Source of the DNA: Alkalilimnicola ehrlichii MLHE-1
GTDB lineage: Bacteria > Pseudomonadota > Gammaproteobacteria > Nitrococcales > Halorhodospiraceae
NCBI RefSeq assembly: GCF_000014785.1
Contig: NC_008340.1
Span: 1,230,001-1,262,000, forward strand
Length of the DNA: 32,000 nucleotides
Direction of reading: 5' to 3'
Position 1 is the first letter of the stretch; each line of letters begins with the position of its first letter. The translations under genes were made by a program, and so were the position numbers. Shown piece after piece: positions 3,859 to 18,224 of this stretch. Under the pieces are notes generated by a model, which saw only the letters and a program-made list of their open reading frames with translations, had not been told where the DNA came from and did no database searches.

Positions 3859-4493
3859 GGCCGGGCCTCCGGCGGATCAACCTTTGGCGCATGGGGGGTG
3901 GCGATACCCTGAAGGTAGAGTGCGAAGACGCGCGGCGCGACGGTGGCAGCCTGCCGCATGTCGCCACTGATCAGTGCCTGGAGCACCAGCCCCTGGATTG
4001 CGCCGATGAACTGGGTGGCCGCTGCCTCGATATCCAGGTCCGGGCGCAGCAGGCCGGCCCTGCACCCGGCCTGAAGGAGCGTCTGCAGCCGTTGCCGGTA
4101 TTTCCGAAGCAGGGCCTGTGCCATCTGGCGTGCCGGCGTCGGCTCGGGGTGTTGAAGCTCACCCAGGATCAGGCGGGGGACGCCGGGGTGGTGGACGATG
4201 AAGTCCACGTGGGTCAGGAAGAGCTGCTCCAAGGCGTCGGTGGGGCTGTCGGCCGCCTCGATGGCCTGGTCGGCCCGGCGCAAGAGCTGTCCACTGGCCC
4301 AGTCCACCACCGCTTCCCAGATGGTGGCCTTGCTGGGGAAGTGTCGGAACAGGGCCCCCTGGGTCACCCCCATGCGCTCGGCGATAGCGGCCATCGTCAC
4401 TCGCGCCGGATTGTGTTCGCCACAGAGTGCGGTCACCGCCCGGATGATCAGGGCCTTGCGCTCCTCGGCGGGCAGACGTTGACGATCTGACAT
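3855..4493 (-). CDS. TetR/AcrR-family transcriptional repressor
   Basis: MSDRQRLPAEERKALIIRAVTALCGEHNPARVTMAAIAERMGVTQGALFRHFPSKATIWEAVV is a classic TetR N-terminal HTH. The track start at 4523 is a GTG inside an operator-like palindrome; the in-frame ATG at 4493 is preferred. The stop overlaps the adaptor start. Confidence 0.85.
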   Translation of the reverse strand: MSDRQRLPAEERKALIIRAVTALCGEHNPARVTMAAIAERMGVTQGALFRHFPSKATIWEAVVDWASGQLLRRADQAIEAADSPTDALEQLFLTHVDFIVHHPGVPRLILGELQHPEPTPARQMAQALLRKYRQRLQTLLQAGCRAGLLRPDLDIEAAATQFIGAIQGLVLQALISGDMRQAATVAPRVFALYLQGIATPHAPKVDPPEARP

Positions 4494-4767: not shown

Positions 4768-7700
4768 ATGTCACCTGATGCGCAAGTTCCCCCCGAAGCC
4801 GGTGGCCCACAGGGACGCGATTTTCCCCTGGGTATCGCCGGCTTCCGTTACGCGGATCTCCACAACCCGGCGCAGCTTGCGGAACTGTTGAGCGTTTTCG
4901 ACCAATTCCTGGCGACGGACGATCCGGTATTGTTCGAGGTCTTTCAGCAGTACCGGACGGCCGGGGCGGGGGATCTCTCGGCCACGGAACGCTCGGCGGT
5001 ACTCACCGGGGTGGCCCCGCAAGTGAGCCGTTTTCTGGCCCGCCTCTTTGGGATCGAGAGCGAATGGGGTCGACTCCGGGAACGCGTTCAGCGGGAGTTG
5101 GATACCGTCATGGCCTACCGGGACCAAGTGGTCGCGAAGGTCCGGAAGCGCTTTGCCCCCGAGGATCTAGCCGACTGGGACCTGGAGACCCTGGACCGCG
5201 AGGTCTCTGTGCTCCAAGAGGCATTGTCCGGGAGCGATAACCCAGTCGAAGACCCGGAGCGGGCGCTTGCCGCGAGCGCCATGTCCGTGCTGCAGGCCAT
5301 GGAGACGGGGCACGACCCCGATGGCGTAACGGCCCTTCGGCAGTCACTGGAGGCGCATCCCGATGGCCCCACATTGCTGGCGGAGGCGCTGTCGGAGAGC
5401 ACCCCGCAGGCCTTCTTGGCCGCGCTTCTCAACCGGATAGAACGCTGGACTTTCGCCGCCGTTCAATCCACCGCAATCGGTGCCCAAACGCATGGTTGGA
5501 CGGCGCTGCGGGGACGGGCCAAGACGGACTTTGAGAACCAAGTGCCGTGCGAGCCCGTGGCGCGGGAGGGGTATACGGCGTATCGCACCGACGTGACGCG
5601 AAGGCGGGATGGGTTCGCACTCACTGATCCGGGTCTGCCGCTAAGGCGGATCGTGGACGAGGTGGAGCACTGCCTCTACTGCCACGATCGCGACCGGGAC
5701 TTCTGCTCCAAGGGTATGCGCGCAAAGGCGGGTGGTTTTCGCAACAACCCCTTGGGCACGCCCATGGTGGGCTGTCCGCTGGAGGAGAAGATCTCAGAGG
5801 CGCAATATCTCAAGCACCGGGGCGACAGCCTGGCCGCCCTGGCGGTGGTTATGGTGGACAACCCTATGGTGCCCGGGACCGGCCACCGCATCTGCAAGGA
5901 CTGCGTCACCGCCTGTATCTATCAGAAGGTCGAGCCGGTGGCGATCCCGGAGGTGGAAACGGCCATCCTGCGCGAGGTGCTTGCCCTGCCTTACGGCTTC
6001 GAGATCTACAGCCTGCTCACCCGGTGGAACCCCCTGCACGTCCAGCGCCCCCACATGCTGCCCTACAACGGCAAGAATGTGCTGGTTGCCGGTATGGGGC
6101 CGGCAGGTTACACCCTGGCCCACTACCTGTTGAATGAGGGGTTTGGCGTTGTCGGCATCGATGGCCTGAAGATTGAGCCCCTGCCCGATGAGTTGACTGG
6201 CGTCGCCAGCGGCGTTCCCGCGCCGGTGCGCGATTTCGACACCCTCTACGAGCGACTGGATGAACGGACGGTACTTGGCTTCGGCGGGGTCGCCGAGTAT
6301 GGCATTACCGCTCGCTGGGACAAGAACTTCCTCAAGGTCATCTATCTGACGCTAGCACGACGCCGCGCATTCCGCTGCTTTGGGGGGGTGCGCCTGGGTG
6401 GCACCCTGACGGTGGACGACGCCTGGGCCCTCGGCTTTCATCACATTGCGATCGCCGCCGGGGCCGGCAAGCCGACGGTCATCGGGCTTGAGAACAATCT
6501 GGTGCGCGGCATCCGTCAGGCATCGGACTTTCTGATGGGGCTGCAGCTGACCGGTGCGGCCCAGCGCAACGCCCTGGCCAACATGCAGGTTCGCCTGCCC
6601 GCCGGAGTGGTGGGGGGCGGGCTGACGGCCGTGGATACCACCACGGAGCTCCTCGCCTACTACCCCATCCAGGTGGAGCGAACGTTGGAGCGGTACGAGG
6701 CTGTGGTCAGCCGCTTTGGAGAGGAAGCGGTCCTGGCCGAATATGACGGCGAGGAACGCGAGATCCTTGACGAGTTTCTGGACCATGGCCGCGCCGTCCG
6801 GGCCGAGCGCGCCCGGGCAGAGCAGGCAGGGGAGTGCCCTGACTTCGCGCATCTGCTGTCGGGATGGGGGGGCGTCACGCTCTTCTACCGCAAGGGGTTG
6901 CATGACGCGCCGGCCTATCGGCAGAACCACGACGAGCTGGTCAGGGCCATGGAGGAGGGCCTGATTCTGGCTGATGGTATGGCACCGCAATCGGCCATGG
7001 CAGACGGGCATGGCCACCTGAAGGCCGTTCGTTTTGAGAAGATGCATCAGCAGGAGGATGGCGACTGGGTGGCCGGTGGTGAGACACTCACCTTGCCCCT
7101 TCGGACCCTGGTAGTGGCCGCCGGTACCTCACCCAACGTGGCCTACGAAAGGGAGCACCCGGGCACCTTCGAGCTGGATGGCAAATTCTTCCGTGCCTTC
7201 GAGCCCGGAGAGGACGCCCCACACCTGACGCCGGTGGGCGAGAACCAGCCCACCCCAAAAATTGGTAACCCGGCACCCTTCACCTCCTATGAACATGACG
7301 GCCGCCGCGTGTCCTTCTTCGGCGACAACCATCCCGTTTACGCAGGCAACGTGGTGCGCGCCATGGCCAGCGCCAAGGACGGTTATCCATACATCGTCGA
7401 CCTCTTCCGTCAGGCGCTCGACAGCCTGGACCCGGCCGATCAGCCGCAACGGGATGCGGCCATAAGCCGGTTGCTGGCGCACCTGGATGATCAGCTCCAG
7501 GCACGCGTACAGACGGTGCGGCGGCTGGCACCCAGTATTGTCGAGGTGGTGGCGCGTGCGCCGCTGCAGGCGCGCAACTTCCAGCCCGGGCAGTTCTACC
7601 GGGTACAGAACTACGCGTCGTGCGCCCCGCGGATGAACGGCGTGCCGCTGGTCACCGAGGGGATGGCGCTGACCGGGGCCTGGGTGGATAGGGCGCAGGG

Positions 7701-8481
7701 CCTGGTTTCGGTCATCGTGCTGGAAGTGGGCGCCTCGTCCCGCCTCTGTGCCACTTGGCAACCCGGCGACCCGCTGGTGCTGATGGGACCGACCGGTGCC
7801 CCCACCGAGATACCGGCTGGCGAGACGGTGCTGCTGGCCGGAGGCGGCCTGGGTAACGCCGTGCTCTTCTCCATCGGCCGGGCGTTGCGGGCGGCGGGTA
7901 GCCGGGTGCTTTACTTCGCCGGTTACCGTAACCCCGGCGACATCTATAAGGTTGACGAGATCGAGGCGGCGGCAGACGTAGTCGTCTGGAGTGTTGATCC
8001 CGGTCCCGGGGTGCAACCGGTGGTGGCACGCCGCCCACAGGATCGCAGCGTCGTCGGTAACATTGTGGAGGCAATGACCGCGTATGCCGCTGGTGAGTTA
8101 GGGTCGACTGCAGTGCCCATGGGAGCGGTGGATCGCATCATGGCCATCGGCTCCGATCGCATGATGGCGGCGGTGAAAGCAGCCCGTCGCGGGGCGCTTG
8201 AGCCTTATCTGAAACCTGGCCACGTGGCGCTCGGCTCCATCAACTCGCCGATGCAGTGCATGATGAAAGCGGTCTGTGCCCAGTGCCTGTGCCGGCAGGA
8301 GGATCCGGATAGCGGTGAGGAGCGGTTTGTCTTCAGCTGCTGTGAGCAGGATCAGCCCCTCGATGCCGTGGACTTTGAGCACCTGAACGGACGGCTGCGA
8401 CAGAATTCAGTCCAGGAGAAACTGACCAACCGGTGGCTCGATCTGCTCCTTGCGGAGGCCCCTGACATACCCAGGGTATAA
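4768..8481 (+). CDS. Large multidomain iron-sulfur flavoprotein: about 290-aa unassigned N-terminal region + GltD/NfnB-like domain + PyrK/NfnA-like ferredoxin-reductase-type domain
   Basis: GGGAG RBS 6 nt upstream of the ATG. GltD-type Cys region HCLYCHDRDRDFCSKG...GCPLEEKI...HRICKDCVTACIY. Dinucleotide fold VLVAGMGPAGYTLAHYLLNEGFGVVGIDG, with a second Rossmann-like VVGGGLTAVD. The C-terminal part has FQPGQFYRV, LLAGGGLGNAVLFSIGRAL and the Cys cluster CMMKAVCAQCLC...FSCC, as in PyrK-like 2Fe-2S electron-transfer subunits. Confidence 0.75.
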   Translation: MSPDAQVPPEAGGPQGRDFPLGIAGFRYADLHNPAQLAELLSVFDQFLATDDPVLFEVFQQYRTAGAGDLSATERSAVLTGVAPQVSRFLARLFGIESEWGRLRERVQRELDTVMAYRDQVVAKVRKRFAPEDLADWDLETLDREVSVLQEALSGSDNPVEDPERALAASAMSVLQAMETGHDPDGVTALRQSLEAHPDGPTLLAEALSESTPQAFLAALLNRIERWTFAAVQSTAIGAQTHGWTALRGRAKTDFENQVPCEPVAREGYTAYRTDVTRRRDGFALTDPGLPLRRIVDEVEHCLYCHDRDRDFCSKGMRAKAGGFRNNPLGTPMVGCPLEEKISEAQYLKHRGDSLAALAVVMVDNPMVPGTGHRICKDCVTACIYQKVEPVAIPEVETAILREVLALPYGFEIYSLLTRWNPLHVQRPHMLPYNGKNVLVAGMGPAGYTLAHYLLNEGFGVVGIDGLKIEPLPDELTGVASGVPAPVRDFDTLYERLDERTVLGFGGVAEYGITARWDKNFLKVIYLTLARRRAFRCFGGVRLGGTLTVDDAWALGFHHIAIAAGAGKPTVIGLENNLVRGIRQASDFLMGLQLTGAAQRNALANMQVRLPAGVVGGGLTAVDTTTELLAYYPIQVERTLERYEAVVSRFGEEAVLAEYDGEEREILDEFLDHGRAVRAERARAEQAGECPDFAHLLSGWGGVTLFYRKGLHDAPAYRQNHDELVRAMEEGLILADGMAPQSAMADGHGHLKAVRFEKMHQQEDGDWVAGGETLTLPLRTLVVAAGTSPNVAYEREHPGTFELDGKFFRAFEPGEDAPHLTPVGENQPTPKIGNPAPFTSYEHDGRRVSFFGDNHPVYAGNVVRAMASAKDGYPYIVDLFRQALDSLDPADQPQRDAAISRLLAHLDDQLQARVQTVRRLAPSIVEVVARAPLQARNFQPGQFYRVQNYASCAPRMNGVPLVTEGMALTGAWVDRAQGLVSVIVLEVGASSRLCATWQPGDPLVLMGPTGAPTEIPAGETVLLAGGGLGNAVLFSIGRALRAAGSRVLYFAGYRNPGDIYKVDEIEAAADVVVWSVDPGPGVQPVVARRPQDRSVVGNIVEAMTAYAAGELGSTAVPMGAVDRIMAIGSDRMMAAVKAARRGALEPYLKPGHVALGSINSPMQCMMKAVCAQCLCRQEDPDSGEERFVFSCCEQDQPLDAVDFEHLNGRLRQNSVQEKLTNRWLDLLLAEAPDIPRV

Positions 8482-8767
8482 GCCGCCCGGGGGGCACGGG
8501 TGGAAAAGAAGAGGCCCTCGGTCCGGCCGCCGAGGCGTGTGCCGGATGAGGGCCATAACCACTACGGAGAGGGTTGAATGGACACGGCCTTCTTAAAGCA
8601 GAAATCGGGCCAACTCATGAATACCGAAAAATCAATTGGTTACGAGGAGGGTGCCTGGTCCGGGTAGGGCAAATCGCCCACACGATCCGTTGCCTGCCAC
8701 GATCCGACTCTGAGTGCCGGTGGCGCACCCGGTCCGGGTGACGCGGCGGGGAGGTGCGCGGTTGTCT

Positions 8768-8784: not shown

Positions 8785-9013
8785 GTCACTGCGAGGAGGC
8801 GAAGCCGAAGTGGCAGTCTACCGCCCTGGATCGCCACGGGCCTTCGGCCCTCGCGATGACGGGGGGAAAGCCTTCGGCCCTGGCAATGACGGGGGTGCCC
8901 CGTTCCTCGTTGATTCGGGCCCGCGCAGCGGGGAGGGGGGCTCGCGATGACGGGGGTGTGCCGTCCTTCGTAGATTCGGGCTCGCGCAGCGGGGGTGGGG
9001 CTCGCAATGAGGA
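8785..9013. repeat. Cluster of GC-rich palindromic (REP-like) elements with degenerate tandem units
   Basis: GTCACTGCGAGG...CCTCGCGATGAC is a long imperfect palindrome. Units GCCTTCGGCCCTCGCGATGACGGGGG (8840-8865) and GCCTTCGGCCCTGGCAATGACGGGGG (8870-8895) match 24/26. Two units of about 58 bp (8896-8956 and 8957-9013) share TTCGGGC(C/T)CGCGCAGCGGGG...GGGGCTCGC(G/A)ATGA. The GGGCC-TTC-GGCCC hairpin cores sit in a noncoding context. Confidence 0.8.
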
Positions 9014-9069: not shown

Positions 9070-9081
9070 TCTTCGCTTCTT

Positions 9082-9129
9082 TGGCTCCCCGGGACGGGCT
9101 CGAACCGCCGACCCAGTGATTAACAGTCA
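9082..9129 (-). repeat. att direct repeat, copy 1: 48-bp duplicate of the 3-prime part of tRNA-Asn
   Basis: TGGCTCCCCGGGACGGGCTCGAACCGCCGACCCAGTGATTAACAGTCA is identical (48/48) to 18149-18196 inside the intact tRNA. It covers CCA, acceptor 3-prime strand, T arm, variable loop and anticodon loop. Confidence 0.92.
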
Positions 9130-9244
9130 AGCGTTTCTTTCTTTCCCGTCCATTTTTATCACTTGCTCCCTCCCTCCTGGATGCCCGTAAACCCTTGTAC
9201 GGCCTGCATCCAAGGCGTATTATTCTATTCAGGTTAATGCAGTT

Positions 9245-9289
9245 GGGTGCACATCTTGTGACCGCCAGTGTGCACCCAGTTGTGCACCC
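9245..9289. promoter_or_regulatory. Left-arm array of 9-mer TGTGCACCC sites (candidate integrase/excisionase arm-type sites)
   Basis: GGGTGCACA (9245-9253, inverted), then TGTGCACCC at 9269-9277 and 9281-9289 (12-bp spacing). The block ACCGCCAGTGTGCACCCAGTTGTGCACCCA (9261-9290) matches 18061-18090 at 27/30 in the same orientation. Confidence 0.5.
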
Positions 9290-9340
9290 AATCGGCCCAG
9301 TGATTCGGGTTCTGATCTAGTGATTCAGGAGGGCAGGGCG

Positions 9341-10735
9341 ATGGCTCGCAAGGGTATTACGGCCAAGAAACTGGAGGCGCTCCAGGGCAAGCGCCGCAAG
9401 TCGGCCACCAGGGAGTGGGACGGTGACGGTTCAGGGTTCGGGGTGAAGGTGTCGGCAGCCGGGCGGCTGACATTCTTTCAGTTCTACTACTCCCCCGAGG
9501 GCACCACCGATAAAGACGGTAACGACATTACCGGCAAGCGGCGGTTCATGGGGCTGGGTAACTACCCTGAGACAACGCTCGCAGAGGCGCGGGAGAAGGC
9601 GCAGGAGGCGCGAGAGTTGCTAGAGCGGGGCATTGATCCGCAGGAGCACGCCCGAGAGCAGCAGGAGGCGCACAGGCGGGAGAAACGCAAGCGGGCGCAA
9701 CGGGGCACGCTGGCAGGGGTGGCGGCGCTGTACCTGTGGCACATGCGCAAGCGCGGGCGCTCCAGGGAGTACATTACCGCCGTTCGCCGTGGGTTCCACC
9801 GCGACGTGTTCCCGGTGGTGCCCCGTGACACCAAGGCCGGGGACGTGGAGCCGGAGGACGTGCAACTGATCCTGCACCGGCCCCTAAGCCGTGGCGCTGA
9901 CCATACCGCCCGAGTGCTGCGGGCTAACCTGCATCGCGCGTTCAAGTTGGCCATTCAGGCGGATAACGACCCGCGCAACCTGGGCAGTGCCGTTAAGTTC
10001 CGCGTGCGCCACAACCCGGTGGAGGACGTGCCGCTTGAGGTGCACGTTACGCCCGGAGATCGGGAGCTTTCATTTAGCGAGATCGGGCGCGTATGGCGGG
10101 AGGCCGACCACGCGACCCCTTACCCGCAGGATGCGTTGCTGTTGCGCCTGCTGCTGGCGCTGGGCGGCCAGCACATTACCGAGCTGAGGGAAGCACAGTG
10201 GCCCGAGTTCGATTTGCAGGCCGGACAGTGGCACCTGAAAGCCGCCCGGCACAAAAACCGCACCCGCGACCACCTGGTACCAATCAACAGCACCGCCGCC
10301 GAAGTGCTGGAGGAATTGCGGGCGCTGACTGGTGGGCAAGGGTACCTGTTCCCGCAGCTACGCAACGCGCACAAGCCCATGCGAGCCGAGAGGCCGGGCG
10401 CTATCGTTCGCGGTCTGCTGGCGCACCTGGAGGCGCAGGGCGAGCCGATGGAGAAGTTTACGGCCTCAGACTTCCGGCGCACCTGCAAAACGCGGATGCA
10501 CGAGATAGGGATTCCCAAAACCACCACCAACCACCTGCACAACCATGACTTTGGTGGCGTGAGCGCGAAGCACTACGACCGCTACGACTATTGGGGCGAG
10601 AAACAGCGGGCCATGCGGGCATGGGATATTGCGCTGAAAGCCGCCATTGCAGGCGAGCCGGTGCCCGAGGCGCGTTGCCGGGCGGCGCTCCAGTGGGACG
10701 AGAATGGCGGGGCGCGGCTGGAGGTGGTGGGCTAG
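9341..10735 (+). CDS. Tyrosine recombinase, P4-type integrase (N-terminal arm-binding DUF4102-like domain)
   Basis: AGGAGGG RBS 8 nt before the ATG at 9341 (the track start at 9320 is less likely). N-terminus GSGFGVKVSAAGRLTFFQFYYSP...RRFMGLGNYPETTLAEAREKAQEARELLERGIDP matches the P4-integrase arm-domain pattern. The C-terminal catalytic region has DFRRTCKT...LHNH...KHYDRYDY (R, H-x-x-R-like, Tyr). Confidence 0.85.
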   Translation: MARKGITAKKLEALQGKRRKSATREWDGDGSGFGVKVSAAGRLTFFQFYYSPEGTTDKDGNDITGKRRFMGLGNYPETTLAEAREKAQEARELLERGIDPQEHAREQQEAHRREKRKRAQRGTLAGVAALYLWHMRKRGRSREYITAVRRGFHRDVFPVVPRDTKAGDVEPEDVQLILHRPLSRGADHTARVLRANLHRAFKLAIQADNDPRNLGSAVKFRVRHNPVEDVPLEVHVTPGDRELSFSEIGRVWREADHATPYPQDALLLRLLLALGGQHITELREAQWPEFDLQAGQWHLKAARHKNRTRDHLVPINSTAAEVLEELRALTGGQGYLFPQLRNAHKPMRAERPGAIVRGLLAHLEAQGEPMEKFTASDFRRTCKTRMHEIGIPKTTTNHLHNHDFGGVSAKHYDRYDYWGEKQRAMRAWDIALKAAIAGEPVPEARCRAALQWDENGGARLEVVG

Positions 10736-11072
10736 GTCAAAACACAACATCTAGTGGGGGTGTCGCGCTACACCCCTGATATATGGCTAAAATCGGCACT
10801 TGCGCGACCCCCCTCCAGTGCGGTTTAATCAGGTCTGTGCGTGACGGATTGCGCACAAAAAAGCCCGGCCGCTGTTGGAGCAGTGACCGGGCTGGTGGGG
10901 CAAAGCCCCGTTTCTTTCTACCTTTCGTGCTCCACCGTTGGGGGTGGAGTGAGGTCTACCGTTGGAGCGGTAGCCTCATAGGCAGTATAGCCAGAGTTGA
11001 ACACATAGCGCAACACCTGGCCGTATCTTGCCGCCCCCCGCTGGTGGAGCCTCGAACATGAGGTTCTGACCA

Positions 11073-11300
11073 ATGACCGCACAAAACGCGACCGCCTGCC
11101 CTTCCCGCCTGATGAAAAAGCGGGAAGTCATCGACGTTACCGGCCTTTCCGAGTCCACGATCTGGCGACGTGAGCAGGAAGGGCGATTCCCTCCCCGTAT
11201 TCGCCTGGGCCAGCGCATGACCGTCTGGCGTGAGTCGGACGTTCACGAATGGCTTGCCGATCCGGTTGGTTATCAGCAGGCAGGCGGGGAGGGTGCGTAA
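11073..11300 (+). CDS. AlpA-family (prophage CP4-57-type) DNA-binding regulator / excisionase-like protein
   Basis: 75 aa. LMKKREVIDVTGLSESTIWRREQEGRFPPRIRLGQRMTVWRESDVHEWL matches the AlpA/MerR-like winged-HTH pattern. Its stop overlaps the next gene start (TAATG). Confidence 0.75.
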   Translation: MTAQNATACPSRLMKKREVIDVTGLSESTIWRREQEGRFPPRIRLGQRMTVWRESDVHEWLADPVGYQQAGGEGA

Positions 11301-14077
11301 TGCTGACAGAAAAACGAAACCCCGCCGCCGGGGGCGAACCGGCGAACGGGGCGGGCGCACATTGGGATGGCGTGCAACAGAATTATAGCACTGCCGATAG
11401 CACTGCCGATGCCGCCGTTTCACTGTTCACCGCTACGAACCCCTCCCGCCTTTCCAAGCGGTACCATCTGGACCAACAGGGCCAGCTTCTGACCGCCCCC
11501 GGTGGTTCCCTAGTGCGTGGCGAATACCGGCGCATGGAATGCGGGGAGCCGTGGCAACTGGCAACGCTAATTGACGGGTTGCGGCCAGACCAAGCGTTGG
11601 CCTTTGGCGTGGCTAGGGCTGAACGTTCCCCCGTGGCATCCCGCAAGGCCGCAAAAGAAGGGGACATTACCCGCACCCGTGAGCACTTCGATTGGCCCGC
11701 CGCGCCCGGGTGGCTCATGCTCGACTATGACCCTGAGGCGACCGCCAAACCGCTAGACCGGGATGGCCTGTTGTCGGTGCTGCGGGAAGCGTGGCCAGAC
11801 ATCGAGCGTGCCCCGTTGGTGCTGGGTGATAGTGGCAGTTCCCATATCTACCACGCTGATACGGGCGAATGCGTTAAGGGCCGGGGCGGGTTGCGCTGCT
11901 ATGTCCTGGTGGCTGACGCCCGCGACATACCCCGAGCAGGTGAGGTTCTGCATAAGCGCCTATGGCTTGCGGGTCACGGCTTTTACTTGGTGAGCAAGTC
12001 CGGTGCCCTGCTGGAGCGTGGCCCCGTGGATGCCGTGGTGTGGCAGCCCGAGCGCCTGGACTTCGCCGCCGGTGCCGCTTGCATCGCGCCCCTGGAACAA
12101 CGCCGCCCACCGGCAGAGCCGCGCAACAATGACGCCGCGCCCATCGACACCCGCGCAACGCTGCCGGACCTGACAGCCGCAGAGCTGGAGGAACTGGCCG
12201 AGCTGCGCCGACAGGAACGCGAGGCAATGGCGCCAGACCAAGCATTGCAGCGGGAAGAGTGGGTAGAGCAGCGCCTAGACGAAATCCAGCCGAAGGATGT
12301 CGAGGAAGCCCGCGCCCGGCTAACTGATGCGGTGACGAACGGGCGTCTTTACGGTGACTTCGTTTTGCACCACCAAAGCGGCAAGCGCGTGACGGTCGGG
12401 CAAGTGCTGGACGATCCCGACCGCTGGCATGGGCAACGCTTCGCTGATCCGCTGGAACCGGATTACCGGGCGGACAGCCGAATAGCATGGCTGAACCTTC
12501 GCAGTGGTGGCCGCCCCTTCATCTACAGTCATGCCCACGGCGGGGCGCGTTATACGTTGATCCGCGCAAGCGCCACGTTGAAGGCCCAGCCCGGGGAAAT
12601 GCCGCGCATTGTGCGCGAAGCCGACGCCCTTATGGCTGAAGCCGGTGTTGTGTTCCAACGTGGGGGGCAGCTTGTCCGGGTAGTGGAGGACGGTACCCTA
12701 TTCGGGGTGCAACCGCCTTGGTTGCGGACTCACCTGGAGGAAGTAGCCGCATGGCTGAGGTGGGACGGGCGCGCCAAGGATTGGCTACCTGCCGACGCGC
12801 CCGGAGACCTTGCGCCGCGCATCCTGGCCAACCGGGGCGGCTGGAGCGTGCCCGAGCTGACCGGGGTAATTCGCGGGCCGATACTGCGCCCCGATGGCTC
12901 CCTGTTGAACCAGCCCGGCTATGACAAGGCAACCGGCCTGCTGCTGCTAGCAGACCACCCGGACGGCTGGCCAGCCATTCCAGCGCACCCGAGCCGGGAG
13001 CAGGTACGGGCCGCGTTGGCCACCCTTTGGGAGCCTTTCGCGCGCTTCCCTTATGTCGATGACGTGAGCCGAGCGGTTCAACTGGCCGCGTTGCTGACCG
13101 CCGTTCAGCGCCCACTGTTGGAGACCGCGCCCGCCTTCGCCTGGAACGCCTACCGGGCAGGAACGGGCAAGAGCAAGGGCGCGAAGGCTACAGCATGGCT
13201 AGGCGGTTCCGAGCCGGTCGAAAGCCCGTGGTCGGAGCAAGCCGAGGAACAGCGCAAGCGCCTAATGTCCGCGCTGATGGCCGGGCCGTCTAGTCTGCTG
13301 CTAGACAACGTAAGCGGCCCTATGGACTCGGACACGTTATGCGCGGTGTTGACCGCGAGCGAGTTCAGAGACCGCAAGCTAGGCGTATCTGAGGATGTGA
13401 GCGCCCCAACCCGCGTGTTGGTGGCTGCCACGGGTAACAACCTTCGACTAGTGGGCGACCTGTCCCGCCGGGTACTGGTTGCCACCATCGACCACGGAGT
13501 GGAGAACCCGGAGCGCCTGGCCTTCCCCTTTGACCCGGTGGCCCGCGTGCGGGAGCGGTGGTTGCACTACCGCGCCGCCGCCCTAACGGTGCTGCGCGGG
13601 TTTCTCGCTGAGGGCGCCCCAGCCCATGGCCTTGGAACGATGGGCAGCTATGAACAATGGGATGCCCTTATTCGCCAATGCGTGGTCTGGGTCAGGGCCG
13701 AAGGGCTGGCGGGGTTTAGCCTGGCTGACCCTGCCGACGCCGTGGCCCGCAACTACGACAACGACCCGGAAACGCAGAAGCTCCGGGCGCTGGTGGCGGC
13801 ATGGCACGCGCAACACGCCGCCGCGCCCGTGCGGGTCGCCACGCTAATCAGCACAGCCGGGGGCGATGTCGACGGCTGCACCTTCCCGCAATACGACGAA
13901 GGACGGGCGGCGCTGCTGGAGGCCCTGCAAGAGATCGCGGGGGATCGTGGTTATGTGAATCGCCGCCGGTTGGGCCGTTGGATAGAGCGCCACGCCGGGC
14001 GCGTTGTCGATGGCCTGCGCATTGAGAGCGCGGGGGAGGCGTACAAGACCCGGCAATGGCGGGTGGTGCAAGTCTGA
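11300..14077 (+). CDS. Primase/helicase-like replication protein (AEP-like N-terminal motifs + P-loop NTPase)
   Basis: Start ATG at 11300, coupled to the alpA-like stop; the track ORF begins earlier at 11249. N-terminal motifs resemble archaeo-eukaryotic primase signatures: LMLDYDPE (DxD), GDSGSSHIYH (SGxxxH), VDAVVW. The central ILRPDGSLLNQPGYDKATGLLL resembles the D5_N/P4-primase region. P-loop AYRAGTGKSKGA and Walker-B-like SSLLLDNV. The position after int and alpA is as in P4-like/PICI-like elements. Confidence 0.6.
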   Translation: MLTEKRNPAAGGEPANGAGAHWDGVQQNYSTADSTADAAVSLFTATNPSRLSKRYHLDQQGQLLTAPGGSLVRGEYRRMECGEPWQLATLIDGLRPDQALAFGVARAERSPVASRKAAKEGDITRTREHFDWPAAPGWLMLDYDPEATAKPLDRDGLLSVLREAWPDIERAPLVLGDSGSSHIYHADTGECVKGRGGLRCYVLVADARDIPRAGEVLHKRLWLAGHGFYLVSKSGALLERGPVDAVVWQPERLDFAAGAACIAPLEQRRPPAEPRNNDAAPIDTRATLPDLTAAELEELAELRRQEREAMAPDQALQREEWVEQRLDEIQPKDVEEARARLTDAVTNGRLYGDFVLHHQSGKRVTVGQVLDDPDRWHGQRFADPLEPDYRADSRIAWLNLRSGGRPFIYSHAHGGARYTLIRASATLKAQPGEMPRIVREADALMAEAGVVFQRGGQLVRVVEDGTLFGVQPPWLRTHLEEVAAWLRWDGRAKDWLPADAPGDLAPRILANRGGWSVPELTGVIRGPILRPDGSLLNQPGYDKATGLLLLADHPDGWPAIPAHPSREQVRAALATLWEPFARFPYVDDVSRAVQLAALLTAVQRPLLETAPAFAWNAYRAGTGKSKGAKATAWLGGSEPVESPWSEQAEEQRKRLMSALMAGPSSLLLDNVSGPMDSDTLCAVLTASEFRDRKLGVSEDVSAPTRVLVAATGNNLRLVGDLSRRVLVATIDHGVENPERLAFPFDPVARVRERWLHYRAAALTVLRGFLAEGAPAHGLGTMGSYEQWDALIRQCVVWVRAEGLAGFSLADPADAVARNYDNDPETQKLRALVAAWHAQHAAAPVRVATLISTAGGDVDGCTFPQYDEGRAALLEALQEIAGDRGYVNRRRLGRWIERHAGRVVDGLRIESAGEAYKTRQWRVVQV

Positions 14078-14079
14078 GT

Positions 14080-14194
14080 TAGTGGGGGTTTCGGGGGTTT
14101 CTGGGGTTTCTCACAACGATGGGTTCAAAACTGTCAGCGACAGTTCAGACCTATAGAGCGAAACAAACCCCAGAAACCCCACAAACCCCCACTA
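14080..14194. repeat. 30-bp inverted repeat built from three tandem 9-bp GGGGGTTTC iterons per arm (candidate origin of replication)
   Basis: Left arm TAGTGGGGGTTTCGGGGGTTTCTGGGGTTT (14080-14109) pairs with AAACCCCAGAAACCCCACAAACCCCCACTA (14165-14194) at 28/30. The 55-bp spacer is less GC-rich and holds a perfect hairpin AACTGTC-AGC-GACAGTT (14129-14145). The repeat starts 3 bp after the primase-like stop. Confidence 0.8.
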
Positions 14195-14398
14195 GCTACC
14201 GGACCCGAATATAACCTCGCTCAAATCAGGGGCAATTACCCCGGCCTACCCTCCAGCGCCCGCCTTTAAGCCGCCCCTGTGGTGGTGATTGAACCCCGCC
14301 AAGTGATAACTAATCACTCTCGTCAATTCATGTTAATGCAGTTTAATCAATCACTTGTAAAACATTGTCCCGCTAGTACCATAGGGAGTAAGGGTTTT

Positions 14399-14419
14399 AG
14401 GTGCACAAATGGGTGCACA
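14399..14419. promoter_or_regulatory. Two inverted-orientation copies of the 9-mer (AGGTGCACA, GGGTGCACA) upstream of the packaging module
   Basis: 14399-14407 (8/9) and 14411-14419 (9/9), 12-bp spacing, 23 bp upstream of the 14442 ATG and downstream of a possible TTGTAA-N16-TACCAT promoter (14355-14382). Confidence 0.45.
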
Positions 14420-14441
14420 TTAGCGAGAGGTTAGGCGCGAA

Positions 14442-14807
14442 ATGGCGGCCAAGCATCAGGACATTCCAAAGCAATACCGCCCCGGCTGGCTGGAATCGCT
14501 GGACGGTCGTTATGGCCTTGCCCGTGAGCTACGCGCCCGCTTCGATGAAGTCTGTAATGACCTTGGTGGTGCGGATCGCTTGTCTTACATGCAGCGATCC
14601 CTTGTAGAGCGTGGTCTGTGGCTCGAATACTGGCTGGCCCAACAGGAGCAGGCGTTGTCCAAGGGCGGTGACTTCGACGTGGGCAAGTGGGTGCAGGCCG
14701 CTAACAGTCTCCAGGGTATCTACTCCCGCCTTGGTCTGGAGCGCCGTCAACGTGACGTTCCAGACCTTGCGCAATACCTGGCGGCCAAGGCAGGGGAGGC
14801 GGGCTAA
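14442..14807 (+). CDS. Hypothetical protein; putative small terminase subunit by position
   Basis: 121-aa helical protein with high GC3. It lies directly upstream of, and is translationally coupled to (TAATG at 14805-14809), the mini-ORF and TerL. I recognise no diagnostic motif. Confidence 0.45.
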   Translation: MAAKHQDIPKQYRPGWLESLDGRYGLARELRARFDEVCNDLGGADRLSYMQRSLVERGLWLEYWLAQQEQALSKGGDFDVGKWVQAANSLQGIYSRLGLERRQRDVPDLAQYLAAKAGEAG

Positions 14808-15040
14808 TGGTCATCTGTGCCAACTGCCGCCACTACCCCGGTCCCGGCCAGCTATGCGCGGTGGCCAAGCGCCACGCCACGCACCACCGCCGTTCCTGCC
14901 GCTACCACCGGACGGACACCAGCGCCCGCCACGTCGCCACGCTCCGCCGCCTGGCGGTGGATTGGCTCCACCAGGGCGATCACAACCGCTACGCCGTAAC
15001 CCTGGACCTGGCCCACCAGGCACGGGAGGCGATGCGATGA
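14807..15040 (+). CDS. Small Cys4/His-rich protein (possible zinc-ribbon), hypothetical
   Basis: 77 aa, MVICANCRHYPGPGQLCAVAKRHATHHRRSCRYH. Strong G/C third-position bias. Start and stop both overlap the neighbours (TAATG; ATGCGATGA). Confidence 0.45.
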   Translation: MVICANCRHYPGPGQLCAVAKRHATHHRRSCRYHRTDTSARHVATLRRLAVDWLHQGDHNRYAVTLDLAHQAREAMR

Positions 15041-16428
15041 GCGTCACCATCCGCGACGTGATGACCGATCCCGCCCTGTTCGGTGGCCAGTTCGGTGGCG
15101 ACACCTGGGCCGCCTGGCGTGCGCTCCTGAGCGGCTTTTATGGCCTCCCGCTGGACGATGCCGAGGCACAGCACTGGCACGCGCTCACAGACCGCGAGAG
15201 CGCCCCGCAGAGCGCACATGACGAGTTGTGGCTAGTGGTAGGCCGCCGCGGTGGCAAGTCCAATGCAGCGGCCTTGCTGGCGGTCTATGAGGCGTGTTTC
15301 AAAGACCACCGCGATGCCCTGGCACCCGGTGAGGTTGCCACCACCCGCGTCATGGCTGCCGACCGTGCGCAGGCCCGCAGCGTGTTCCGGTATATCTCCG
15401 GTCTGATGCACGCGAATCCGATGCTGGAACGGCTGATCGTGCGCGAGGATCGGGAATCCATAGAGCTGTCCAACCGGGCTGTTATCGAGGTGGGCACGGC
15501 CTCATTCCGCACGACACGCGGCTACACGTTCGCGGCGGTGATTGCCGACGAGGTGGCGTTCTGGCGCTCCGATGACAGCGCGAACCCTGACAGCGAGATC
15601 ATTGCCGCCGTGCGTCCCGGTCTGGCCACGCTGAACGGCAAGCTGATCGCGCTTTCCAGCCCATACGCCCGACGCGGTGAGCTATGGGAAAACTACCGCC
15701 GACACTACGGCAAGGCATCGCCCATCCTGGTGGCGCAGGCTCCCAGCCGCACCATGAATCCCTCATTGCCTGAGCGCGTGGTCACGGAGGCAATGGAGCG
15801 TGACCCGGCCAGTGCGGCGGCGGAGTACCTGGCGGAGTTCAGGACGGACGTGGAGACCTTCCTGCAACGCGAAGTAGTAGAGGCCGCCACGCGGCCCACC
15901 CCGCTGGAGTTGCCCTACAACAAGCGCGTTACCTATACCGCCTTTGTTGATCCGGCAGGTGGTGGCGCGGATGAGTTCACCGCCGCCATCGGCCACCGGG
16001 AAGGGGAGCGCGTGGTCGTGGACGTGCTACGCGCCCGCAAGGGTACGCCTGCCGAGATCGTTGCCGAATACGCCGACCTGCTGAAGTCCTACCGGATCAC
16101 CCGCGCTATCTCGGATCGTTATGCAGGCTCATGGCCTGCCGACGAGTTCAGCCGCCACGGGATCACCGTAGAGCAGGCCGCTAAACCGAAGTCAGACCTT
16201 TATCGGGACATGCTCGCCAGCATGAACAGCGCCCGCGTGGAGCTTCCGCCCGATGATCGGCTGATGACCCAGCTAATCAGCCTGGAGCGCCGCACAGCAC
16301 GCGGTGGCCGGGACAGTATCGACCACGCCCCCGGTGGTCACGATGACAGAGCAAACGCCGTTGCCGGTCTGGTGGCGGCCAACTCACGCGCCCCAGGCGA
16401 ACGGATGCGGGCGCTTTGCACTTGGTAG
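15037..16428 (+). CDS. Phage terminase large subunit
   Basis: The ATG at 15037 overlaps the upstream stop; the track ORF from 14611 has a Pro/Arg-rich, non-protein-like extension. Walker A LVVGRRGGKSNAAALL, Walker B AAVIADEVAFW. The C-terminal RNaseH-like nuclease has acidic residues in FVDPAGGGADEF and GGHDDRANAVAG. Confidence 0.8.
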   Translation: MSVTIRDVMTDPALFGGQFGGDTWAAWRALLSGFYGLPLDDAEAQHWHALTDRESAPQSAHDELWLVVGRRGGKSNAAALLAVYEACFKDHRDALAPGEVATTRVMAADRAQARSVFRYISGLMHANPMLERLIVREDRESIELSNRAVIEVGTASFRTTRGYTFAAVIADEVAFWRSDDSANPDSEIIAAVRPGLATLNGKLIALSSPYARRGELWENYRRHYGKASPILVAQAPSRTMNPSLPERVVTEAMERDPASAAAEYLAEFRTDVETFLQREVVEAATRPTPLELPYNKRVTYTAFVDPAGGGADEFTAAIGHREGERVVVDVLRARKGTPAEIVAEYADLLKSYRITRAISDRYAGSWPADEFSRHGITVEQAAKPKSDLYRDMLASMNSARVELPPDDRLMTQLISLERRTARGGRDSIDHAPGGHDDRANAVAGLVAANSRAPGERMRALCTW

Positions 16429-16446
16429 TACAGCGAGGTAACGACG

Positions 16447-16872
16447 ATGGCAGTTTTCAGAAGTGACAGCCCACAGCATTGGGAACAACCGTCCAGGCCC
16501 ATTAAGGAGTTCTGGAGTTCCGACCTTGAGCCGAAGGCCGACAGCAAGCCCACCCGACGCAAGGCAGACCCGAGCGCGGTGCAACGGCTGATGAACCAGC
16601 GCACCGCCACCCCGAAGGCCGACACCGCTCCGCCGCGCCGTGCTGGCCGGTATGACGCTGGTGCCGAGCGCCGCCGACAGGCCGCCGCGATGGCGGAAAT
16701 CCGCGACCGTCACAAGTCTAGTCGCGGCCTCACCCGCACCGACGCGAAGGCAAAGGCCGCTCCGGTCATGCCAGAGCCGACCACGGACAGCGCTCCGAGT
16801 GGTGGCGGGTATCAGGCGATGGTGGACGCGATCAAGGGCGCACATAAGCGGGGAGGTGATAACAATGGGTAA
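16447..16872 (+). CDS. Hypothetical basic, low-complexity protein
   Basis: 141 aa, rich in Arg/Lys/Ala/Pro, with no recognisable motif. It occupies the position where a portal gene would follow TerL in a phage. It overlaps the next ORF by 8 bp (ATGGGTAA). Confidence 0.4.
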   Translation: MAVFRSDSPQHWEQPSRPIKEFWSSDLEPKADSKPTRRKADPSAVQRLMNQRTATPKADTAPPRRAGRYDAGAERRRQAAAMAEIRDRHKSSRGLTRTDAKAKAAPVMPEPTTDSAPSGGGYQAMVDAIKGAHKRGGDNNG

Positions 16873-17437
16873 GCATGTAGACGCACTGGAAAAGCAGATT
16901 GCCGAAGAGTACCGGCTCAACGAGGAACACGCAGCCGCCGCCGACAAGGCCCGCGACGAGTATCAGGCCGCCGTGGCTGCCGGGGACATGGGAGCGGCTT
17001 CCAACTGCCGTGCCGAGGCCGAACGGCTGGACGGCCTTGCTCGTCAACATGGCGACCGCATAGACGCCCTGGAGGCGCAACGGCCCGAAGCCGAGCGCAA
17101 GGATAACGGCCCTGCCTTCCGGCAGGCGGTGAAGGTGATGGAGCAGGAGTTGCAGGAGGAAGCCGACACCCATGCCGAGCTGGCCGAGCTGGTGGGTAAG
17201 CTGGCCGATCTGCGTAAACGGCTGGACGAAGTACACGCCAGCGCCACCGCCGCCTGTCGCAAAGCCTTTCAGGCCGCCGACGCTGCCCATGAACCGCGAC
17301 CCGAAGTTGACCGGGATCGCATGGCCACCACCGCCGACATGGATGCCCTGATGCGTACAGTAAGGGAGCTGATGAACGTGGCGGGGCACCAGGCAACGCT
17401 AGTCATGAACACGCGGGATAAGGCCCGCGCCGCCTAG
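16865..17437 (+). CDS. Hypothetical acidic alpha-helical coiled-coil protein (scaffold-like composition)
   Basis: The ATG at 16865 is in frame with track ORF 16640-17437. 190 aa, starting MGKHVDALEKQIAEEYRLNEEHAAAADKARDEYQAAV..., with heptad-like Ala/Glu/Leu/Arg composition and good GC3 bias. Confidence 0.5.
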   Translation: MGKHVDALEKQIAEEYRLNEEHAAAADKARDEYQAAVAAGDMGAASNCRAEAERLDGLARQHGDRIDALEAQRPEAERKDNGPAFRQAVKVMEQELQEEADTHAELAELVGKLADLRKRLDEVHASATAACRKAFQAADAAHEPRPEVDRDRMATTADMDALMRTVRELMNVAGHQATLVMNTRDKARAA

Positions 17438-17519
17438 ACCTCGCTGGAAGTGGGGAGCGGTTATTGCCTGCACCGCTCGCGTCCGGCCCGATGGGGTGGC
17501 CGCCCACGAAACCCCTAGC

Positions 17520-17565
17520 GCCCCGGTGGCCTCACTCAGCCATCGGGGCGTGTTTTGTTTTTGGG
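17520..17565 (+). terminator. Rho-independent terminator after the packaging-module genes
   Basis: Stem GCCCCGGTGG (17520-17529) / CCATCGGGGC (17540-17549), 9/10, with a 10-nt loop, followed by GTGTTTTGTTTTTGGG. Confidence 0.55.
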
Positions 17566-17593
17566 AGCCGCCATCGCAACGGAAGCACTCGCC

Positions 17594-18058
17594 ATGTATG
17601 AGGCGGAGGCGAAGGAGAGGCAGAGGTTGTCCCCTGGGCGGCCAGTCGCGAGCGCCGGAAAAGGTCCGGAAATAATTCCGGATGTTTCTGATGATCAGCC
17701 CATCACCACCAGTCAGAAGGCCGCCATCGCAGCCGAGAAGATGGAGCCGCCCAAGCCGTCCCGCTACGAGCAAGAATCCCGCGCCAAGGCCGCCGCAGAC
17801 TTCGGCACCAATCCGCGCTATGTGTCGGATGCGAAGAGGTGGCGCAGTGCTAGGCCGCATTCTTGCATGTCATGCAAGGGGCATTCCCCCATGCAAGGCG
17901 TGCCAACATTGAAGTTTCCTATCGGTATTGGCGGTAAACGGCGTTTGTCCTATCGACCTGCGCGGGTGGTCTGGCATCCATCCGCAGAGTGGGGCGGGTT
18001 CTGGCGACCCGGTGGCCGACCGCTGGGTAAAGTGCGCTGCACCCAGTTATGCACCTAG
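17594..18058 (+). pseudogene. ParB-like/KorB-like fragment (probable remnant)
   Basis: YEAEAKERQRLSPGRP...GKGPEI...ESRAKAAADFGTNPRYVSDAKRW resembles the region after the ParB N-terminal domain in phage ParB-like nucleases, but no N-terminal domain is present. The track start (TTG at 17555) lies inside the terminator T-tract, and the 3-prime part of the ORF runs through the arm-site repeats. Confidence 0.25.
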
Positions 18059-18089
18059 CAACCGCCAATGTGCACCCACCTGTGCACCC
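18037..18089. promoter_or_regulatory. Right-arm array of 9-mer sites (candidate arm-type recombinase sites)
   Basis: Perfect TGTGCACCC at 18069-18077 and 18081-18089 (12-bp spacing, the same geometry as the left arm), plus degenerate copies CTGCACCC (18037-18044) and TATGCACCT (18048-18056), 12 bp apart. Confidence 0.5.
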
Positions 18090-18103
18090 AGATAACCCCC
18101 AGA

Positions 18104-18147
18104 CAAACAAAAAGGGCCTAAGCGAATCGCCTAGGCCCTTGTTTTGT
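18104..18147 (-). terminator. Rho-independent (bidirectional-looking) terminator supplied by the element to the reconstituted tRNA-Asn
   Basis: Stem AGGGCCTA (18113-18120) / TAGGCCCT (18132-18139) with an 11-nt loop. An A-run lies on one side and TTGTTTTGT on the other. It lies directly 3-prime of the tRNA on the minus strand. Confidence 0.6.
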
Positions 18148-18148
18148 A

Positions 18149-18224
<76 letters not shown>

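Follow-up and report, generated by a model that had tools for sequence, protein, structure and literature searches.

A 32,000-nt stretch of the Alkalilimnicola ehrlichii MLHE-1 genome (the window, to which all coordinates refer) contains a compact integrative island in which the core genes of a phage satellite are followed by an apparently intact terminase. The island spans 9077–18196, with a repeat-to-repeat spacing of 9,067 bp, and encodes an integrase, an AlpA-family regulator, a primase/helicase-type replicase, a protein resembling a small terminase subunit (TerS), a small cysteine-rich protein, a large terminase subunit (TerL) and two further small proteins (Table 1). The initial annotation had listed int, alpA and a primase, followed by proteins of 121, 77 (with four cysteines), 463 (TerL), 141 and 190 amino acids (aa) and a terminator; each of these lies where it had been placed. 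The extent given to the element at that stage (11073–17437) is too short: int (9341–10735) and the attachment (att) repeats also belong to it.

Genes were finally chosen by the conservation of open reading frames (ORFs) together with the NCBI gene calls for A. ehrlichii MLHE-1. The NCBI calls agree with all calls given here, and the products (TerL, orf121, orf190 and the others) are 100% identical. A custom gene caller based on third-codon-position GC composition (GC3) missed alpA, orf121 and orf141, put orf190 on the wrong strand and was dropped. ORFs at 10783–11061 and 17555–18058 lack homologs in related loci and were not counted as genes.

Both ends of the island are marked by a 53-nt direct repeat, whose two copies are 96% identical and share an exact 48-nt match starting at 9082 and 18149. 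This repeat is the 3′ end of a tRNA-Asn(GTT) gene, which is intact on the right. The int reading frame is longest from 9320, and NCBI starts it at 9341; its product contains the Pfam domains Arm-DNA-bind_3 (E 9.6e-19), Phage_int_M and Phage_integrase (E 1.4e-11) and matches phrog_1 (E 1.8e-39). The start codon of the replicase overlaps the stop codon of alpA (TGATG). Residues 62–407 of the replicase match the DNA primase family phrog_16593 (E 3.8e-57), and its C-terminal half matches phrog_29234 (E 3.4e-97) and the polymerase/primase family phrog_19930; the translation contains the P-loop AGTGKS, the UniRef name is “DNA primase/polymerase bifunctional N-terminal domain”, and Pfam and the PDB gave no match. 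Integrase, AlpA-type regulator and primase-replicase occur in the order of the SatelliteFinder definition of phage-inducible chromosomal islands (PICIs) (PMC10085698).

Table 1. Features of the island, with positions in the window (strand left empty where none is given)
Feature	Position	Strand	Evidence
Left att repeat	9077–9129		displaced 3′ 48 nt of tRNA-Asn plus 5 nt
Three TGCACCCA motifs, one of them inverted, in the att–int interval	9244–9290		motif count
P4-type tyrosine integrase (int), 464 aa (NCBI start)	9341–10735	+	Pfam and PHROG
AlpA-family regulator/excisionase (alpA)	11073–11300	+	PF05930, E 7.6e-17; phrog_2790, E 1.7e-13
Primase/helicase-type replicase, 925 aa (NCBI start 11300)	11300–14077	+	PHROG matches
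Iterons: three GGGGGTTTC facing three inverted copies across a 55-nt spacer	14077–14197		repeat and motif counts
Packaging-operon leader, lower GC	14198–14441		sequence reading, repeats, GC dip to 0.59
orf121, small-terminase-like, 121 aa	14442–14807	+	position, weak fold match
orf77, small Cys-rich protein, 77 aa, coupled to both neighbors	14807–15040	+	overlaps TAATG, ATGA
TerL, large terminase subunit (ATPase and RNase H-like nuclease), 463 aa, apparently intact	15037–16428	+	PHROG, fold, motifs
orf141, basic low-complexity protein, 141 aa, NCBI ABI56419	16447–16872	+	weak syntenic homologs
orf190, acidic all-helical protein, 190 aa	16865–17437	+	family of ~31 cluster representatives
Terminator-like hairpin then T-run, end of packaging operon	17518–17551	+	13-bp stem, 10 GC pairs, then GTTTTGTTTT
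Second trio of TGCACCCA motifs, beside the tRNA-side att	18038–18090		motif count
Right att repeat (18144–18196) within intact tRNA-Asn(GTT) (18149–18224)	18144–18224	-	ARAGORN; Rfam tRNA, 66.8 bits

The identification of TerL is secure: the features of both an ATPase and a nuclease domain are present in its sequence and structural model, and the protein is predicted to be active. It matches phrog_2 (E 5.4e-23), and Pfam TerL_ATPase matches weakly, under the cut-off (E 3.6e-3). In Foldseek searches, the AlphaFold model (predicted local distance difference test score, pLDDT, 72) matches the full-length large terminases of HK97, T4, Sf6 and D6E; the best match is HK97 TerL (6z6d, E 2.6e-19), and T4 gp17 and Sf6 gp2 (template modeling score, TM, 0.52) are also among the matches. 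The model also fits the ATPase domains of T4 gp17 and P74-26 and matches the G20c nuclease (TM 0.76, target-normalized), and the family profile matches the solved nuclease domains 5tge and 5m1f (E 3e-3). An alignment of 23 homologs (65–78% identical) shows no variation in Walker A (G69RRGGKS75), Walker B (D171/E172) or the acidic residues D305, D436 and D437 of the nuclease, in line with the earlier description of both motif sets as intact. Purifying selection, for which a check had been proposed, is indicated by the ratio of nonsynonymous to synonymous substitution rates (dN/dS; 0.13–0.21 for TerL pairs, 0.23–0.45 for orf190), values that are rough because synonymous sites are saturated. The final ~16 residues of TerL share no consensus among close homologs; as a speculation, such a variable end would suit a helper-specific contact.

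This terminase is distant from those in the phage records searched. The best match to TerL among 50,697 phage records, from Synechococcus phage S-CBS4, shares 25.6% identity with it; none of the records matches the island DNA, and a tblastn search with orf121 is empty even at E 1. In IMG/VR, TerLs that are 43% identical lie in true phages, next to a different TerS and with a 912-aa portal after TerL. Taken together, these comparisons point to a satellite lineage that, as judged from sequence, derives from a phage head module and has long been separate; the capsid and/or protease genes that follow TerL in some relatives point to the same ancestry.

Upstream of TerL, the three reading frames orf121, orf77 and TerL are joined by TAATG and ATGCGATGA (ATGA) overlaps, exactly as first read. 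In 77 of 84 loci, TerL directly follows a member of the orf121 family, and at least 335 homologs are 60–80% identical across genera, none of them named and none with a Pfam domain. Its AlphaFold model is all-helical (pLDDT 83); among the viral models of BFVD, the top five matches and many lower ones are annotated “Terminase small subunit” (best E 7.8e-3, TM 0.57). The profile of the family found nothing among PDB sequences. With moderate confidence, position and this weak fold match mark orf121 as TerS-like. The intervening orf77, with cysteines at positions 4, 7, 17 and 31, has a single syntenic homolog (E 1e-7) and no family match in Pfam, PHROGs, NCBIfam or PADLOC; it is missing from most relatives, in which the TerS-like gene abuts TerL.

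Downstream of TerL, 1.7 kb remain before the att site, holding two small ORFs and leaving no room for a portal and a capsid gene. Searches of all island ORFs against Pfam, PHROG and other family libraries found no portal, capsid, tail or lysis gene, and no ORF matches a capsid-morphogenesis protein of the PICI type. The first of the two small proteins, orf141, has no family match in any library searched and has weak homologs between TerL and the orf190 homolog in three relatives (E ~1e-5 in a small database), so that orf141 and orf190 recur there as a pair. The second, orf190, belongs to a family of ~31 cluster representatives, all of ~180–215 aa. It has no match above threshold in PHROG, Pfam or PADLOC, and its PDB profile search returns only designed helical bundles, a compositional effect; sub-threshold matches to Pfam HSBP1 and NCBIfam ASRP were taken as coiled-coil noise. 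From its position, orf190 is a candidate scaffold-like or head-interface factor.

The arrangement is not peculiar to A. ehrlichii. A scan of one genome per species yielded 80 loci from Gamma- and Alphaproteobacteria, Acidobacteriota, Nitrospira and other groups, and gene-order statistics were obtained by conservation-based ORF clustering over 84 loci. Most of these keep the order int, AlpA or another helix-turn-helix (HTH) regulator, replicase, orf121 family, TerL and one or two variable genes, whereas the replicase itself may come from any of at least five unrelated families. Three contigs of 8.6–9.3 kb, with genes called independently, give the same picture (int, HTH/AlpA, primase, a 116–118-aa protein, TerL and one or two small genes), with tRNA-like att sequences at the end. 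The int-side repeat of 27 related loci is the 3′ end of a tRNA gene located 1.1–6.5 kb beyond TerL; eleven tRNA identities are represented (Met, Leu, Ser, Val, Ala, Asn, Cys, Lys, Thr, Pro and Arg). With the window included, element sizes range from 7.2 to 15.1 kb (median ~9.8 kb), and TerL and att lie no more than 2.6 kb apart in the window and in 20 of the 27 tRNA-anchored loci. Two IMG/VR contigs of 9,398 and 9,819 bp carry the same gene set; their ends overlap exactly, by 60 and 114 nt, which makes them complete copies, circular or terminally redundant. The search for syntenic islands of about 9 kb that the initial annotation had suggested was therefore successful.

Several individual relatives add detail. 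In Alcanivorax jadensis (L058), ARAGORN calls tRNA-Pro at both element ends (4205–4278 and 13596–13672), which means that the int-side att copy is long enough to resemble a second tRNA gene. A second A. ehrlichii genome (a 3.19-Mb contig; P0005, P0277) encodes a TerL only 80% identical and an orf141 product at least 90% identical, so related but distinct islands circulate within the species. The cassette is also found on plasmids. On pM44601 (58 kb) of Methylobacterium sp. 4-46 (L105), positions 1343–4213 encode the TerS-like protein, TerL and proteins of 114 and 231 aa. The flanks (~1.3 kb upstream, 9 kb downstream) contain no integrase, and the cassette evidently moves between replicon types. 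A 9,720-bp circular plasmid of Roseomonas sp. FDAARGOS_362 (L104) carries a DUF5906 primase, a resolvase and the TerS-like gene. Its reading as an excised copy of the island was rejected, since it retains only the first 161 residues of TerL and has no integrase; it is a degenerate relative kept as an episome and carries little weight as evidence.

The slot after TerL varies between relatives and mostly holds helical proteins with no relation to those of phages. It is occupied by a helical superfamily (F5/F15/F44) in 23 loci, by a second family (F11) in 8, by the orf190 family (F24) in 4 (three of them, L001, L003 and L004, with the orf141 homolog noted above; the orf77 homolog is in L003), by an HK97-type capsid protein (PF05065, E 5e-72) in 6, by a coiled-coil protein plus a Gp13-like capsid protein in 3 and by a prohead protease (Peptidase_S78) in 3. 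Profile comparison with hhalign joins F5, F15 and F44 to each other and leaves orf190 (F24) and F11 unlinked to anything; no meaningful PHROG or PADLOC match was obtained for the helical families. About one relative in ten carries a major capsid gene (HK97-type or Gp13-like; L002 at 7563–8705, L014, L018, L020, L045, L027, L031 and L046) right after TerL, sometimes with the prohead protease. In L002, TerL is followed by the capsid gene and an 89-aa ORF, and the element then ends, leaving no space for a portal. No portal family was found in any locus inspected, and within the att-bounded element the inspected loci contain no portal, head-completion, tail or lysis gene. The earlier statement that portal and capsid genes are missing is accordingly correct for this island, and its portal half extends to every locus inspected; its capsid half is not true of the family as a whole. 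The capsid-carrying members would build their own shells yet borrow a portal.

Tape-measure-like proteins (TMP_3, phrog_24) follow the slot in Halomonas and Rhizobiaceae variants and in the two complete IMG/VR contigs (L008, L013, L045, the rhizobial L054–L073, L084, L086 and L088). In the rhizobial variants, the TerS-like gene is often directly preceded by one for a small serine recombinase (resolvase). For the mycobacterial EPIPs, the occurrence of a tape-measure protein in a satellite was recently described as unusual (PMC12822802).

Repeated motifs in the island offer candidate sites for its proteins. The octamer TGCACCCA occurs 8 times in the window, always within the island (1.85 expected; a count of 8 was reached by none of 100 shuffles). 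Besides the two trios near the ends, one copy lies directly 5′ of the orf121 start codon (14410–14417) and one inside orf121 (14688–14695). The octamer is probably the binding site of an island protein, with Int arm sites or AlpA operators as candidates.

In PICIs and Staphylococcus aureus pathogenicity islands (SaPIs), the replication origin adjoins the replicase gene. Directly 3′ of the island replicase, a 33-nt inverted repeat (91% complementary) coincides with the iterons, whose motif GGGGGTTTC is found 7 times in the window against 1.4 expected. Sets of iterons or inverted repeats are also found directly 3′ of the replicase in L004 (5240–5466), L003 (4963–5077) and L058 (9308–9430), with a different iteron sequence in each relative, in line with the swapped replicase types. 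By analogy with the PICI/SaPI layout, the region 14077–14197 is probably the replication origin. The adjoining leader contains TAACTAATCACT/TAATCAATCACT repeats, with GGTGCACA / TGGGTGCACA just 5′ of the orf121 start; it is a candidate promoter/operator and a possible pac/cos region.

Compared with known satellites, the island combines features that are elsewhere kept apart. Capsid-forming PICIs (cf-PICIs) were reportedly described by Alqurainy et al. in 2023. They measure ~12–15 kb. Like them, the island is integrative, carries int, alpA and pri-rep ahead of a TerS-like gene and a TerL of its own and, judged by gene content, would take the rest of the virion from a helper. The class is defined by 11 core components, which include portal, major capsid, protease and head-tail adaptor/connector and usually an HNH protein (PMC10085698, PMC10690885). 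The island has ~5 of the 11 (int, alpA, pri-rep, TerL and possibly TerS), whereas the class needs at least 9; portal, major capsid, protease, adaptor/connector and HNH are all absent. It is also smaller, at ~9 kb, its capsid-carrying relatives still have no portal, and the nearest database phage shares only ~26% identity with its TerL lineage.

The likeness to Gram-negative PICIs (EcCICFT073 type) and SaPIs lies in the order of int, alpA and primase-replicase, the probable replicase-adjacent origin, integration at a tRNA/att site and a size close to the PICI median of 9.5 kb (PMC10085698). PICIs redirect the TerL of the helper by means of a satellite TerS or of Rpp, which binds the phage TerS, and apart from a capsid-morphogenesis gene they typically lack structural genes of phages (PMC10085698, PMC10690885). 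The island differs in having a full TerL, and Rpp, Cpm or a capsid-morphogenesis gene is not recognizable in it. Two defining features of the class do not apply: an intact TerL is present where no other structural or packaging gene is expected, and the combination of capsid morphogenesis with a helper-redirecting TerS is not found, orf121 matching no known TerS profile.

With P4, the island shares a P4-type integrase, an AlpA-like regulator, a large primase/helicase, a small genome and possibly packaging into a small capsid. P4 has no terminase gene, uses the terminase of P2, encodes Psu and Delta, and packages 11.6 kb in a T=4 head. In contrast, the island encodes its own terminase, and homologs of Sid, Psu and Delta were not found in it with Pfam and PHROG. 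P4 also encodes Sid and has its own cos site (PMC10690885).

Very small integrative satellites of environmental Proteobacteria, namely PICMIs (phage-inducible chromosomal minimalist islands) and the marine VEIMEs (virion-encapsidated integrative mobile elements), are comparable in their minimal packaging set, and concatemer packaging is a plausible shared solution. TerS homologs have been reported for both, “motor-like ATPases” for VEIMEs and concatemer packaging for PICMIs; a conserved TerS–TerL pair has not been reported for them. The Streptomyces satellites MiniFlayer and MulchRoom do carry TerS and TerL. They also encode portal, capsid, scaffold and head-to-tail adaptor and have no replication genes (PMC10690885), which is the opposite split of functions from that of the island. 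The earlier claim that the element fits none of P4, PICI/SaPI and cf-PICI holds against the published core-gene definitions (PMC10085698). In the literature searched, no description of int–alpA–primase–TerS–TerL elements without a portal was found; papers beyond that literature are possible.

The most credible interpretation, and a moderately probable one, is that the island is an integrative phage satellite of a family for which no description was found, which would use a private terminase to load its DNA into heads made by a helper phage. For the broader proposition the chances are judged about even: that there is a large unnamed family of ~8–10-kb tRNA-integrating satellites, in Proteobacteria and other phyla, with a private TerS–TerL motor, a swappable “head-interface” slot and never a portal, which seize helper procapsids. 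Such a strategy would lie between that of PICIs, which borrow all but TerS, and that of cf-PICIs, which borrow only tails.

A course of events can be proposed for such a satellite. Int-mediated integration is evident from the att structure. A helper phage or stress might turn on AlpA, which would bring about excision as well as gene expression; AlpA operators or Int arm sites may be provided by the TGCACCCA copies near the two ends and before the packaging operon. The replicase would then fire the iteron origin just 3′ of its own gene and produce concatemers. As a small terminase, orf121 would recognize a site on the island, and TerL would cut the DNA and pump it through the portal of helper-built procapsids, the helper providing at least portal and tails. 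Owning a TerL, the satellite would need neither to retarget nor to compete for the helper terminase. The post-TerL genes (orf141 and orf190 here) might fit the element to the head of one helper, whether as alternative scaffolds for small ~9-kb heads, as adaptors between TerL and the helper portal or, in relatives, as a capsid protein of their own. Alternatively, a normal head might be filled with several genome copies through headful packaging; either small capsids or head-filling concatemers would agree with the narrow range of sizes.

A number of points weigh against packaging into helper heads. Packaging requires a terminase to dock on a portal, and terminases and portals of unrelated phages are not in general expected to pair. 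The island is known from sequence alone, with excision, replication and encapsidation inferred, and the 32-kb window of this genome points to no helper phage. By their terminal overlaps, the two IMG/VR contigs are complete assemblies, which are not necessarily virion DNA, and the selection estimates are rough, as noted. No function is detectable for orf141, orf190 or orf77. A cos or pac site, for which the initial annotation had pointed to the region near 14200–14440, could not be defined in the leader (14198–14441). Finally, orf121 has no sequence-level match to any TerS family in Pfam, PHROGs, NCBIfam, phage records or PDB profiles, and its model finds HK97 TerS three times in the PDB, each time weakly (E 1.4–7.6); the original TerS-like call is upheld by position and a weak fold match and not by sequence.

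Other functions for the cassette were considered. The terminase might instead act in anti-phage interference, occupying phage portals or procapsids or cutting phage DNA, with the downstream genes as defense or counter-defense cargo. This is unlikely. Known satellites do interfere with helper packaging (PMC10085698, PMC9618062), and the att-adjacent genes vary strongly between relatives, like satellite defense hotspots; however, none of the island genes matches a PADLOC defense model, the capsid and protease genes in the slot of some relatives point to head assembly, and the narrow size range together with the many tRNA sites implies efficient horizontal transfer. Interference and self-packaging are, moreover, not mutually exclusive.

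Use of the TerS-like protein and TerL for processing the element’s own DNA (concatemer resolution or excision), with spread by vesicles, conjugative mobilization or generalized transduction, is a decidedly improbable alternative. The plasmid-borne cassettes, one on the 58-kb Methylobacterium plasmid with no integrase seen nearby and a truncated one on the 9.7-kb circular Roseomonas replicon, mean that the cassette is not tied to one kind of replicon and lend this view some support. Against it, ATPase and nuclease motifs are both conserved, whereas a pure resolvase would not need a motor; family searches of the island showed no relaxase or oriT-type gene, and in some relatives the cassette comes together with capsid and protease genes.

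That the island is a decayed prophage fused to a satellite, an alternative already raised in the initial annotation, is hardly credible. The TerS–TerL–orf141–orf190 segment would then be a functionless stump of a head module, and its phage-like order of TerS, TerL and head genes, as well as the 43% identical TerLs in portal-bearing phages, would be explained. Yet the truncated form recurs with the same boundaries in dozens of genomes at many tRNA sites and in complete contigs of 9.4–9.8 kb, relatives do not run on into portal and capsid genes, and the ~9-kb form is conserved. TerL appears intact: its motifs are invariant and it is under purifying selection, and orf121 remains 60–80% identical across genera. 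The phage records contain neither a close TerL nor any orf121 homolog, and the att and tRNA boundaries argue against the relatives being assembly fragments of larger prophages. A self-sufficient minimal virus or helper-free, gene-transfer-agent-like particle, which the minority of relatives that themselves encode a major capsid protein, alone or alongside a protease, might suggest, is equally far-fetched, since the island has no capsid gene and only 1.7 kb after TerL, the inspected loci are devoid of portal, head-completion, tail and lysis genes, and a cryptic portal or capsid function would be required of orf141 or orf190.

Should the island indeed be a satellite that packages itself into helper heads, it would represent a distinct mode of phage parasitism, in which an element’s own motor works on the portal of another, and would bear on the specificity of terminase–portal recognition. 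The family looks abundant: there are more than 7,600 TerL homologs, many on contigs of 8–10 kb; most of them are “hypothetical proteins” with no name, encoded on ~9-kb contigs. Such satellites may therefore account for a sizeable share of the small “defective prophage” calls and small viral contigs from saline, marine and soil metagenomes. The conserved TerS-like/TerL pair offers a simple marker for finding them, and its presence on plasmids hints at a way of making other replicons transducible.

Some minor observations concern the surroundings and outliers of the family. Two short contigs from metagenome-assembled genomes (MAGs) labeled Methanosarcinales (L028) and Opitutales (L030) encode a TerL 62% identical to the gammaproteobacterial one; their assignment probably reflects mis-binning of a mobile element and not true hosts. 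Between the operon terminator and the tRNA gene of the island, an unannotated frame at 17596–17850 (MYEAEAKERQRLSPGRP...RYVSDAKRW) is similar to short phage and plasmid DNA-binding proteins; related loci contain no homolog, the protein collection lacks it, and it may be a remnant or noncoding. Host DNA just outside the left att (8840–9000) contains two to three tandem copies of a GC-rich unit of 26–60 nt (GCCTTCGGCCCTCGCGATGACGGGGG...), which could be a repeat resembling repetitive extragenic palindromic (REP) elements.

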